A stretch of 64,000 nt of DNA. Origin: a virus. Taxonomy: Duplodnaviria; Heunggongvirae; Uroviricota; Caudoviricetes. Shown here in pieces: positions 4,191 through 62,431 of the stretch; the stretch's first letter is position 1, and the number at the start of each line of letters is the position of its first letter. The notes under the pieces were generated by a model that was not told where the DNA came from, searched no databases, and worked only from the letters and a program-made list of their open reading frames with translations. The stretch lies in the IMG/VR virus record IMGVR_UViG_2526164631_000023; one strand, written 5' to 3'. The position numbers and the translations under genes were made by a program.

Positions 4191-4993
4191 TGCTTGATTC
4201 AATAGGTGAAGTTAAAGCCTTCAAAATTCTGTCAGATGCCGGTATCTCTACACCAGAATCTATAACCATAAGCCGGGCAGCGTCTGTAAAAGCCTCATCA
4301 CTCGCCAGCGCCATACAGGGAATAGTTCACGCCGATAAAACCTATCCTGATTCTGTTTCGGCCTGGACTACTCAATTGCTTGGCTTTTCTGAACAGCTAA
4401 ATGAGGCCAGCAAAGCGTCTTCATTACTGGCTGATTCTCTTTCCCCATACACCAAGCCATCAGAGCTGTTACAGATGAAGATTGGCTGGGAATGCTACGT
4501 AAAAGGTAACGAGCTGACCCCCATACCTGCTTTCGCCCTTGTTGAGGGGATGGGGAATGTTTCCATTCCGCAATCTCTAACGGACGCATTGACGGCGCTA
4601 AAACTTGATGCTCTGAAAACCGCCATGAACGCCATTAACGCAAAAATAGAAGCTGCTGGAAGTGCTGGTGGTGATAGCAATGGTGGACAGGGTGGTGCTG
4701 GGGGCGCTCAGGCTCCAGTCATTACTCAGGATGAAATTGAAGCTTTACGGGAAGCAGTGACAGCCGCCGAAGTTTTACTCTCCGAAATTAACTCAGCAAG
4801 TGAGAGTGTCGTAGCCCTTACAGGTCGCATTAAAACGTCAACCACTCAGGCAACCAAAGGTTTAGAGAACGCTGTCGCCATCACGTTAACTGGTTCTCTA
4901 CTGGATGATGCAGTAATGAGTCCGGCAATCAGTTTAATCATGCCACAAGGCGTTATCGATGCGCTCCAAAAGAACACCAAAAAGGAACCATAG
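4190..4993 (+). CDS. Hypothetical protein with Gly-rich linker, translationally coupled to the PAAR gene
   Basis: ATG overlaps the PAAR stop (TAATG at 4188-4192); 267 aa; GSAGGDSNGGQGGAGGAQAP linker; the track start at 4091 is an upstream alternative. Confidence 0.45.
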   Translation: MLDSIGEVKAFKILSDAGISTPESITISRAASVKASSLASAIQGIVHADKTYPDSVSAWTTQLLGFSEQLNEASKASSLLADSLSPYTKPSELLQMKIGWECYVKGNELTPIPAFALVEGMGNVSIPQSLTDALTALKLDALKTAMNAINAKIEAAGSAGGDSNGGQGGAGGAQAPVITQDEIEALREAVTAAEVLLSEINSASESVVALTGRIKTSTTQATKGLENAVAITLTGSLLDDAVMSPAISLIMPQGVIDALQKNTKKEP

Positions 4994-59884: not shown

Positions 59885-59901
59885 GCCCCGCGGTGCGGGG
59901 C
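59885..59901. terminator. Hairpin between convergent pacB and repressor-position gene
   Basis: gccccgc ggtg cggggc. Confidence 0.4.
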
Positions 59902-59910
59902 CGGTGGTGA

Positions 59911-60948
59911 TTACCAGAGCTTTGCGGCGTGCTGCGTTTGGGGGAATGTGTATCCGTAACGTTCTTCGATTGCTTTGCCGTATTTTTTACGCGCTTCATT
60001 CAGTTTGATGCCGGTCAGGTCGTCTCCAGAGGCCATCATTACGTCTAACAATTCCAGATCCATTTTATCCAGCCTTGCCATTGCTTCACGCGATGTACGA
60101 ATCTTACGTTCAATGATATGGCGAATGGCCGGATCGGCATCCTCCAGCATCTTAGCGGATTTCTGCTTAAGGTTTTCGTTGCGAATATCGATGTTCCTTA
60201 AGATGTACGACTTCGCAACGTAGCTTGGCTGGTGTTTTTCCAGGTCACGAACACGATATAAGTTAAAATCGCCGAGAAGGCTGCAAGGTACCGATTCGAC
60301 GCCAGAATAAATTGTAATGCTCCGGCGTTCACCAACATTATTGACAACGGGGATCGTTGTCTTCGGTAGTCTTGCGAAAACCAATGCGCCATGTGCGCCA
60401 ACTCTAAAGCGAGAAAGGGCATTGCTGCCTTCGATGTTTGTTGTCAGCACAACATCTGTATATGCCTCTTTACGCGCCCGGTAGATCTCGCCTTCAGGCT
60501 CAGCTTCAAAGAAGCGCTGTTCTTCTTCAAGAGCACCTACGATTTGAGAAAAAACCCTATTTTTCAGGCTTTTCTTTATGATTTTGTCGTATTTTTTGAG
60601 CAATTGCTCACGTGTAAATGTACGTGTTGTTGTAGCGCTTTGCACAACAACATGCGTGCTTTGATTGGTGTCCTCAATGATGAATGGGATCGGAGAATAT
60701 ACAGACTCAACAATGTTCGACGCTTTGCCGTCGGCATCGCGACACATGTCAACGAAGGCTTTCCATTCAGCAAGACATTTTTCAGCTTCTTCTAATATGT
60801 TTTGGTCATGCGTTAATGCAACATGGCGGAATTCCTCGCCAGCATAACTGGTATCATGGAAAACAGAGTTTGCGACCACCAGCTCTTTCCACCGTTCAGC
60901 GGTTTGCAGGAACCGTTTGTACTCTTTCTCGATCGACTTCTTACTCAT
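59911..60948 (-). CDS. Protein at the P1 c1 position (345 aa): candidate master repressor
   Basis: Divergent from the recombinase across the rox region; operator-like motif overlaps its upstream region; no sequence-level confirmation. Confidence 0.3.
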   Translation of the reverse strand: MSKKSIEKEYKRFLQTAERWKELVVANSVFHDTSYAGEEFRHVALTHDQNILEEAEKCLAEWKAFVDMCRDADGKASNIVESVYSPIPFIIEDTNQSTHVVVQSATTTRTFTREQLLKKYDKIIKKSLKNRVFSQIVGALEEEQRFFEAEPEGEIYRARKEAYTDVVLTTNIEGSNALSRFRVGAHGALVFARLPKTTIPVVNNVGERRSITIYSGVESVPCSLLGDFNLYRVRDLEKHQPSYVAKSYILRNIDIRNENLKQKSAKMLEDADPAIRHIIERKIRTSREAMARLDKMDLELLDVMMASGDDLTGIKLNEARKKYGKAIEERYGYTFPQTQHAAKLW

Positions 60949-60960
60949 TATTCCTACTCG

Positions 60961-60980
60961 ATTTAGTTTTCTAACATAAA
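60961..60980 (-). promoter_or_regulatory. Operator-like motif copy h (reverse: TTTATGTTAGAAAACTAAAT)
   Basis: 13 bp upstream of the repressor-position gene start. Confidence 0.45.
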
Positions 60981-61157
60981 ATTACTATGACAAATTTATG
61001 TCGAATAACAGAGTGAGTAAAGGATAGAGCTGTGATTTTTTGTCATCAATTTTAGAAAACCAACTGTATAAACCACACTTCGCAAATTAAAGACCATGAA
61101 GGCAACGTGTTACTGGTCAGAATCAATCTGTGATGGATTAAAAAAATCGCCATTTTA

Positions 61158-61189
61158 TAACTTTAAATAATTGGCATTATTTAAAGTTA
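61158..61189. other. rox-type recombination site (Cre/lox-like 14-4-14 palindrome)
   Basis: TAACTTTAAATAAT TGGC ATTATTTAAAGTTA: perfect 14-bp inverted arms around 4-bp spacer; reverse complement of the rox sequence as remembered. Confidence 0.8.
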
Positions 61190-61341
61190 GGCTATAATCA
61201 TGTGTAGATGAACAGTGTTGACATCACTGAAAATACGTGCCTCGAATCAAAGGCTTGTATTTTGAAAATTAACTTATAGCTACCCTGTCATTTTTATATT
61301 TTTCGCGTAGCGTCATCTGTATATAGAGGTCAAATAGTTTC

Positions 61342-62370
61342 ATGAGTGAATTAATTATCTCTGGCAGTTCCGGTGGTTTTCTGCGCAACATTGGCAAAGA
61401 GTACCAGGAAGCCGCAGAAAACTTTATGCGGTTCATGAATGACCAGGGGGCTTATGCGCCGAATACTCTGCGCGACCTCCGGTTGGTGTTTCATTCCTGG
61501 GCGCGCTGGTGTCACGCTCGCCAGCTTGCCTGGTTTCCGATCTCACCAGAAATGGCCCGCGAGTATTTTCTTCAGCTGCATGATGCCGATCTGGCTTCGA
61601 CCACCATTGATAAGCACTACGCCATGCTGAACATGCTGCTTTCGCATTGTGGCCTTCCGCCACTTTCGGATGATAAAAGTGTTTCTCTGGCTATGCGGCG
61701 CATCCGGCGCGAAGCGGCAACTGAAAAAGGCGAACGAACAGGCCAGGCTATACCGCTTCGGTGGGACGATCTGAAACTGCTCGACGTCCTGTTGTCCAGG
61801 TCAGAACGGCTGGTAGACCTGCGCAACCGGGCTTTTCTCTTTGTTGCATACAATACGCTGATGCGTATGTCGGAAATATCGCGTATTCGTGTAGGTGATC
61901 TGGACCAAACAGGTGACACTGTCACGCTACATATTTCACACACGAAGACAATAACGACCGCCGCCGGGCTTGATAAGGTGCTTTCCCGTCGCACTACTGC
62001 TGTGCTGAATGACTGGCTGGATGTTTCCGGGCTTCGTGAACATCCTGACGCGGTGCTGTTCCCGCCGATACACCGTAGCAATAAGGCCAGGATTACGACA
62101 ACGCCCCTTACTGCACCTGCAATGGAGAAAATATTCAGCGACGCCTGGGTGTTGCTGAATAAAAGGGATGCCGCGCCAAACAAAGGGAGATACCGGACGT
62201 GGACCGGGCATAGTGCTCGTGTCGGGGCCGCTATCGATATGGCTGAAAAGCAGGTGTCTATGGTGGAGATCATGCAGGAAGGAACCTGGAAGAAACCGGA
62301 AACACTTATGCGGTATCTGCGCCGTGGCGGTGTGTCTGTGGGGGCTAATAGCCGCTTGATGGATTCGTAA
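61342..62370 (+). CDS. dre: Tyrosine site-specific recombinase of the Cre family (Dre-like)
   Basis: 342 aa with Cre-like blocks VSLAMRRIRRE, AFLFVAYNTLMRMSEISRIRVGDL, WTGHSARVGAAIDMA, LMRYLR (catalytic R..HxxR..Y); adjacent to rox-type site. Confidence 0.85.
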   Translation: MSELIISGSSGGFLRNIGKEYQEAAENFMRFMNDQGAYAPNTLRDLRLVFHSWARWCHARQLAWFPISPEMAREYFLQLHDADLASTTIDKHYAMLNMLLSHCGLPPLSDDKSVSLAMRRIRREAATEKGERTGQAIPLRWDDLKLLDVLLSRSERLVDLRNRAFLFVAYNTLMRMSEISRIRVGDLDQTGDTVTLHISHTKTITTAAGLDKVLSRRTTAVLNDWLDVSGLREHPDAVLFPPIHRSNKARITTTPLTAPAMEKIFSDAWVLLNKRDAAPNKGRYRTWTGHSARVGAAIDMAEKQVSMVEIMQEGTWKKPETLMRYLRRGGVSVGANSRLMDS

Positions 62371-62371
62371 A

Positions 62372-62389
62372 TTAAATTTCTAACACATC
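62372..62389 (-). promoter_or_regulatory. Operator-like motif copy i (reverse: GATGTGTTAGAAATTTAA)
   Basis: Immediately downstream of recombinase stop. Confidence 0.4.
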
Positions 62390-62431
62390 TTTTTAGATTG
62401 ATATCTTTGCTGTAAAGTACCCTCGCCTATT

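Follow-up and report, generated by a model that had tools for sequence, protein, structure and literature searches.

A promoter-like sequence overlapping the rox crossover site upstream of the Dre recombinase gene in a D6-type plasmid prophage

The intergenic DNA between the divergent genes c1 and dre contains rox, the crossover site of the Dre recombinase, and a pair of promoter-like hexamers that overlap this site and face dre. The locus raises the question of whether dre is transcribed from a promoter built around the crossover site of its own product, and whether Dre could thereby control its own synthesis. We approached this question by computational analysis of a 64,000-nucleotide stretch of viral DNA (IMG/VR record IMGVR_UViG_2526164631_000023), hereafter called the window, and by comparison with related loci from public collections.

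Identity of the locus and of the rox site

The genes and the site concerned are the following.

59911 to 60948, minus strand: c1, D6-type prophage repressor gene, 345 aa, divergent from dre
61158 to 61189, no strand assigned: rox, 32-bp target of the Dre recombinase, with the asymmetric spacer TGGC at 61172 to 61175
61342 to 62370, plus strand: dre, Cre-type tyrosine recombinase gene, 342 aa, product differing by one residue (A278T) from D6 Dre

The original prediction had placed a rox-type site, described as a perfect 14-4-14 palindrome, between divergent recombinase and repressor-position genes. Both genes were found in that arrangement, on the plus and minus strands respectively, and both are named in the D6 record AY753669; the minus-strand gene is annotated as c1 or prophage repressor in AY753669 and in MF356679. 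Megablast of region 59900 to 62400 against phage records gave 98.2% full-length identity to the immC region of phage D6 (AY753669) and 98% identity to the D6 genome MF356679. The gene order lpa-pacA-pacB-c1-rox-dre-dut was that of the D6 records, in a P1-like phage-plasmid context. The 32-bp site was identical in D6 as well, and nothing of substance set the two loci apart. The window is another D6-type, P1-like plasmid prophage. Among 5,426 complete E. coli genomes, 124 had the locus, almost always on plasmids of about 90 kb, and the Dre of the window was 100% identical to plasmid-borne copies.

Dre matched the Pfam family Phage_integrase (E=5e-17), and its closest solved structure was that of Cre (E=5e-69). 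Residues R173, E176, K201, H289, R292, W315 and Y324 of Cre were aligned with the identical residues R175, E178, K202, H290, R293, W316 and Y325 of Dre. The c1 product matched PHROG 1678 (E=2e-169) and was a distant homolog of P1 C1, with 21% identity over 240 aa (E=2e-8).

The left arm of the site, TAACTTTAAATAAT (61158 to 61171), and the right arm, ATTATTTAAAGTTA (61176 to 61189), showed 100% complementarity and form a perfect 14-4-14 inverted repeat. Here the early description was correct and understated the case: positions 61158 to 61189, when reverse-complemented, give exactly the published wild-type rox, TAACTTTAAATAATGCCAATTATTTAAAGTTA (PMC4777119), and AY753669 annotates the same 32 bp at 4909 to 4940 as misc_recomb, 'region of crossover (rox) site for Dre recombinase'. 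The site itself was thus already known; site, recombinase and repressor gene are textbook knowledge, from a genome-engineering tool in wide use. The palindrome matched once in the 64-kb window and in none of 100 dinucleotide-preserving shuffles, even with 3 mismatches allowed, and is certainly beyond chance. No isolated or extra Dre half-sites were found elsewhere in the window. Dre recombines rox in E. coli, and recombination by Dre without accessory factors has been published for a 32-bp sequence identical to the rox of the window (PMC3553980; PMC4777119).

The flanks of rox differed between relatives. The roughly 100 bp directly left of the site (about 61058 to 61157) was compared with L030:2050-2147 and L017:6880-6980. 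In L030, identity was 100% for more than 200 bp right of rox, and the 100 bp directly left was replaced by unrelated sequence; group B likewise had unrelated sequence in about 100 bp left of rox. In L030 and group B alike, homology breaks off precisely at the left boundary of rox, which could reflect natural exchange at rox or a hypervariable segment on the c1 side.

Exact rox arms with a TAAT/ATTA spacer were also present in a Clostridia MAG (OZ007016.1; L031:6381-6412). The match lay between two convergent ORFs, was flanked by an A-run and a T-run and had no recombinase nearby. It was set aside as a coincidence, and not counted as rox, because it is an AT-rich hairpin resembling a bidirectional terminator between convergent ORFs and lacks a nearby recombinase.

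A 24-codon mini-ORF had also been noted at 61093 to 61167, ending inside the site. The open frame exists, at 61096 to 61170 including the stop codon (61096 to 61167 without it). It was intact in only 2 of 29 distinct relatives: in D6 an extra A in an A-run shifts the frame, and other lineages replace the whole segment. We therefore rejected the mini-ORF as a gene.

Promoter-like hexamers overlapping rox and their conservation

The promoter-like elements at rox are the following.

61171 to 61176, plus strand: -35-like hexamer TTGGCA (5 of 6 consensus positions), coinciding with the crossover centre of rox
61193 to 61198, plus strand: -10 hexamer TATAAT (6 of 6), 3 bp past the right arm and 16 bp from the -35
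61204 to 61206, plus strand: predicted transcription start of the rox-embedded promoter, from -10 geometry; leader of about 137 nt

The -35-like hexamer spans the whole 4-bp spacer and the one base of each arm that adjoins it. The original prediction gave it at the same coordinates and strand, and only its placement in the right part of the site had to be corrected, as it occupies the centre. The -10 hexamer, its distance from the -35 and its direction towards the recombinase gene were as foreseen. Together, TTGGCA-16-TATAAT matches the consensus at 11 of 12 positions and faces dre from 144 bp upstream. With +1 near 61205, the left arm would extend from about -47 to -34, the spacer from -33 to -30 and the right arm from about -29 to -16. 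Neither D6 GenBank record (AY753669, MF356679) annotates a promoter at rox, and no description of the overlap was found in the literature searched; it may already have been noted in the original 2004 report on D6/Dre or in the papers on the genomes of P1 and (2018) of D6.

By position-weighted score, TTGGCA-16-TATAAT ranked first on both strands of the whole window (13.6 vs 12.9 for the runner-up). In a regional scan of 60800 to 61500 it was the sole promoter-like match, with 2.2 weaker matches expected. The window contained one match of at least 11 of 12 positions, and block-shuffled windows contained a mean of 1.2. The quality of the hexamers alone is no more than chance. Since one such match per 64 kb is expected by chance, the argument rests on conservation. 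The position, orientation and conservation of the hexamers are beyond chance.

To obtain related loci, public collections were scanned for two rox arms with any spacer, which gave 23 viral contigs, and a protein-guided scan gave 80 loci with Dre identities of 100% to 42%. In the Dre clade, down to 70% Dre identity, the rox arms were invariant or had a single A-to-G change, with flanks that were often unrelated. Six lineages with Dre identities of 100 to 70% (window, L017, L059, L061, L005 and L013) were compared, with the window as the reference. The hexamer located 3 bp right of the arm was TATAAT in five lineages and TATGAT in one, while the three preceding bases and all of the sequence that followed differed. 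This amounts to 1 difference in 30 positions, vs a mean of 10.5 per 6-column stretch in 61190 to 61280. Among the 86 stretches of 6 columns in this region the -10 was the only one so conserved (0 of the 85 others), a selective conservation of the promoter-like sequence at a fixed offset on the recombinase-proximal side. This comparative evidence supports the earlier proposal of a sigma70-like promoter that overlaps the site. The -35 was not conserved: it was TTGGCA in three of the six lineages and TTGGAG, TTAGCA and TTAGTA in the others, with TGGGGA in one 99% relative, and in L005 and L061 it retained 3 of 6 consensus positions.

Variation in the centre of the site was also seen as variation of the rox spacer, with arms identical or nearly so: TAGT in L005:1817-1848 (Dre 90%), TAGC in L013 (the same as L064; 70%), TGGA in L061 (Dre homolog 89%) and GGGG in L020 (99%). 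These natural spacer variants may represent separate recombination compatibility groups.

Outside the Dre clade, -10-like hexamers were located 3 to 5 bp past the recombinase-proximal arm in the 51% Leclercia-type lineage (TATGAT), L089 (TATACT) and L091 (TAGAAT), at 16 or 18 bp from the site centre. Among 22 representatives, 11 had such a hexamer on the recombinase side vs 3 on the mirror side, at inconsistent offsets. The layout was absent from the 55% group, the Panto/Rahnella-like group, L090, L096 and P1. A promoter inside the site as a general feature of the Cre family was rejected, as P1, the 55% group and the Panto/Rahnella-like group lack the layout; its absence from several Cre-like groups indicates a lineage-specific arrangement and not a family rule.

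A different arrangement was observed in L066/L067, where a site reading ATAACTTTATATA-ATGTCAGT-TATATAAAGTTAT precedes the gene for a 55-56% Dre homolog. The arm/spacer junction of this site forms TATAAT towards the recombinase gene, in the opposite orientation to the TATAAT of P1 loxP. The reverse complement of the site centre reads CTGACA, with 5 of 6 positions of the -35 consensus.

Possible self-repression of dre and other sources of its transcription

On balance we lean towards the reading that rox, the crossover site of Dre, has the main dre promoter built around it, and that Dre represses its own synthesis. In a D6-type phage-plasmid, Dre acting at rox would circularise incoming phage DNA and resolve dimers of the plasmid prophage. 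The central 6 bp of rox, where crossover takes place, would serve as the -35, the right Dre-binding arm would form the promoter spacer, and the -10 would lie 3 bp outside the site. Just after infection, with Dre absent, RNA polymerase could use this rox-embedded promoter. As known from Cre-loxP structures, a monomer of the Cre type covers a single arm together with the spacer bases next to it. As Dre accumulates, binding of two monomers to the arms would block about -47 to -16, so that sigma70 could no longer reach the -35 region and Dre would keep its own synthesis low. We infer both the start of transcription at this promoter and its repression by Dre from the sequence; because a Dre dimer on rox would span the -35 region and the promoter spacer, self-repression is a likely mechanism. 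TATAAT is not needed for recombination, since the minimal 32-bp rox works (PMC4777119), which argues that the hexamer is kept for transcription. Several points count against the proposal: the -35 is variable, the layout is absent from P1 and from the 55% and Panto/Rahnella-like groups, and at physiological levels Dre may bind too weakly or too briefly for repression. A leader hairpin with its T-run (61230 to 61263) and a better-conserved leader block closer to the start codon (61283 to 61330) would be compatible with attenuation, or with another dre promoter instead of or besides this one.

The elements found on both sides of rox are the following.

60963 to 60977, minus strand: D6-type C1 operator-like repeat, core TTAGAAAAC, consensus about tgTGTTAGAAAACTAAaat
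61021 to 61049, minus strand: candidate c1 promoter TTGATG-17-TATCCT, leftward, score 10.3, among the top 16 matches of the window (prediction)
61049 to 61063, plus strand: weaker second copy of the operator-like repeat, directly adjacent to the -35 of the c1 promoter candidate, no overlap with rox
61218 to 61247, plus strand: secondary weak promoter candidate TTGACA-18-TCGAAT, score 9.1, inside the dre leader
61283 to 61330, plus strand: conserved leader block, ending at the ribosome-binding site AGAGG (61325 to 61329) and containing CGCGTAGCG (61304 to 61312)
61285 to 61313, dre leader: weaker promoter candidate CTGTCA-17-TAGCGT

On the c1 side, the two operator-like copies form an inverted pair that brackets the candidate leftward c1 promoter. 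About eight copies of tgTGTTAGAAAACTAAaat were present in the window (6561, 40373, 50276, 51319, 52568, 56541 on the minus strand, 60974 on the minus strand, and 61052), and several adjoin top-ranked sigma70-like matches. The repeat is probably the operator of the D6-type C1 repressor and is distinct from the P1 operator ATTGCTCTAATAAATTT, which was absent from the window within 3 mismatches. GATC and the LexA box (CTGT-N8-ACAG) were absent from 60949 to 61345.

In the dre leader, TTGACA was conserved in Dre lineages of at least 89% identity and lost in the 70% lineage. The block 61283 to 61330 was the most conserved part of the leader, its columns being invariant or nearly so in Dre lineages of 100 to 70%, and its motif CGCGTAGCG was common to P1 and other Cre-like leaders. 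A hairpin at 61230 to 61263 (AAAATACGTGCCT / AGGCTTGTATTTT), with an A-run before it and a T-run after it, has the shape of a bidirectional terminator. An RNA structure or attenuator in the leader was unsupported: the fold had z = -0.56, the alignment consensus reached -5.2 kcal/mol and compensatory changes were absent. Rfam gave nothing significant in the window region or in related leaders.

The promoter could be real and Dre could play no part in its control. Expression would then be constitutive or otherwise regulated, set by leader elements, by Dam methylation as in P1 cre or by C1, and the promoter would simply abut rox. P1 cre offers a precedent, with several promoters and with Dam sites and a C1 operator nearby, none of them inside lox, and GATC clusters occur in leaders of several Dre-clade and 51-55% lineages; the conserved leader block would also fit. 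We nevertheless regard this reading as unlikely, because in the window no GATC, LexA box or C1-operator copy overlaps the promoter, and because simultaneous occupancy by Dre and RNA polymerase is sterically implausible when both Dre arms fully overlap the -35 and the spacer. A rather less probable reading holds that the hexamers at rox are not the dre promoter and that dre is read from a promoter downstream, at 61218 to 61247 or within 61283 to 61330. TATAAT would then be kept for DNA bending, as a host-factor site, or for a short non-coding transcript ended at the 61230 to 61263 hairpin. The two leader candidates (scores 9.1 and 6.0) and the presence of the hairpin with its T-run speak for it, as does the block closest to the start codon, where conservation in the leader is highest and which is common to P1. 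Against it, the -10 hexamers of these candidates are poor, TCGAAT being without the A at position 2 and TAGCGT matching at 3 of 6 positions, and the 70% lineage has lost TTGACA and kept TATAAT. As for the hairpin, it is weak, lacks covariation and has a T-run that is base-paired in the predicted fold. Recombination is not a reason for keeping TATAAT either, as the minimal 32-bp rox recombines without it (PMC4777119).

It is very improbable that the resemblance to a promoter is a coincidence of an AT-rich recombination site and an AT-rich flank. The shuffled windows, with their average of 1.2 matches of equal quality, and the regional scan, with one match against 2.2 weaker ones expected, would allow it. 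Coincidence fails to explain a -10 kept at a fixed offset across lineages with unrelated flanks, the side-specific recurrence of such hexamers in other Cre-like lineages, and a top rank in the window combined with the right place and orientation. The self-repressed promoter wrapped around rox remains our preferred reading.

A more specific version of it, in which the central 6 bp of rox are used doubly, as the crossover region that sets rox-rox compatibility and as the -35 of the dre promoter, is possible and rather doubtful. If it were true, the spacer variants TGGC, TGGA, TAGC and TAGT would shift recombination compatibility and, with it, the dosage of the recombinase. Occupancy by Dre, or synapsis, at one minimal site would then give a burst of expression after infection followed by shut-off, with accessory subsites unneeded, unlike in res-type systems.

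Comparison with related recombination systems

The Dre/rox system of Escherichia phage D6 was reportedly described by Sauer and McDermott in 2004. The overlap of the native dre promoter with rox appears to be a modest new point.

P1 (NC_005856) has an architecture homologous to that of the window, in the order c1 repressor side, site and recombinase. The recombinases belong to the same family (40.5% identity), and in P1 transcription crosses the site, with multiple promoters around it. The two loci differ in the site itself, loxP being 13-8-13 and rox 14-4-14, and in the regulatory layout, that of P1 lox-cre not being found in the window. In P1, P4cre ends 14 bp left of lox, P2coi and P3cre lie to its right, and no annotated hexamer falls inside lox; the internal TATAAT of loxP is oriented away from cre and lacks a -35 partner. 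The gene cra lies between lox and cre in P1, whereas dre follows directly after its leader in the window. The Dam sites, LexA box and C1 operator Oc1e of P1 had no counterparts found in the window.

Parallels in regulation come from other recombinases. Res sites of the Tn3 family (Tn3, gamma-delta) contain the resolvase and transposase promoters, to which TnpR binds and which it represses (PMC7157771). The TnpI tyrosine recombinase of Tn5401 has promoter elements within its site (IRS) and the same repression logic, and the D protein of the F plasmid (ResD/rfsF) is both repressor and resolvase (PMC7157771). In TnpR/res, TnpI/IRS and ResD/rfsF the binding site overlaps the core promoter of the recombinase and its occupancy represses; by their coordinates, the rox arms and the -35 overlap in the same manner, and by analogy Dre may repress at rox. 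The three systems have several subsites and accessory arms, and their repression was demonstrated experimentally, whereas at rox a single minimal crossover site would serve both functions. TnpR is moreover a serine recombinase and Dre a tyrosine recombinase. The promoter overlap at rox is plausible, is supported by conservation, would be a familiar kind of regulation and is not surprising. If confirmed, it would place Dre among the recombinases whose recombination site serves to repress their own promoter, with the simplest possible site.

The overlap may also matter for constructs. In one orientation rox carries a -35 hexamer with 5 of 6 consensus positions, preceded by AT-rich DNA. A rox 'scar' located 16 to 18 bp upstream of a -10-like sequence could therefore make an orientation-dependent, Dre-sensitive promoter in bacterial constructs.

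Leaders of genes for Cre-family recombinases (or of cra) contain an inverted-repeat element of about 65 nt, in which gCTACGTGAAATCTG is followed by 26 to 30 unrelated nt and then by ATTTC(G/A)CGTAGCG. No Rfam family corresponds to this element. It was located as follows.

L003:113-177 (P1): inverted repeat of about 65 nt
L006:1913-1977: the same element
L007:1826-1890: the same element
L068:1046-1110: the same element
Also present in L089, L090, L091 and L096

Its length was constant and its distance from the start codon was fixed, at about 35 to 45 nt, in lineages with only 42-56% protein identity. Both arms were conserved in sequence, with a double change in only one pair, so that recognition by a protein is as likely as an RNA stem. 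The -10 of the annotated P3cre of P1 lies inside the 5' arm of the element. In the Dre clade only the 3' arm was kept, at 61304 to 61312 in the window.
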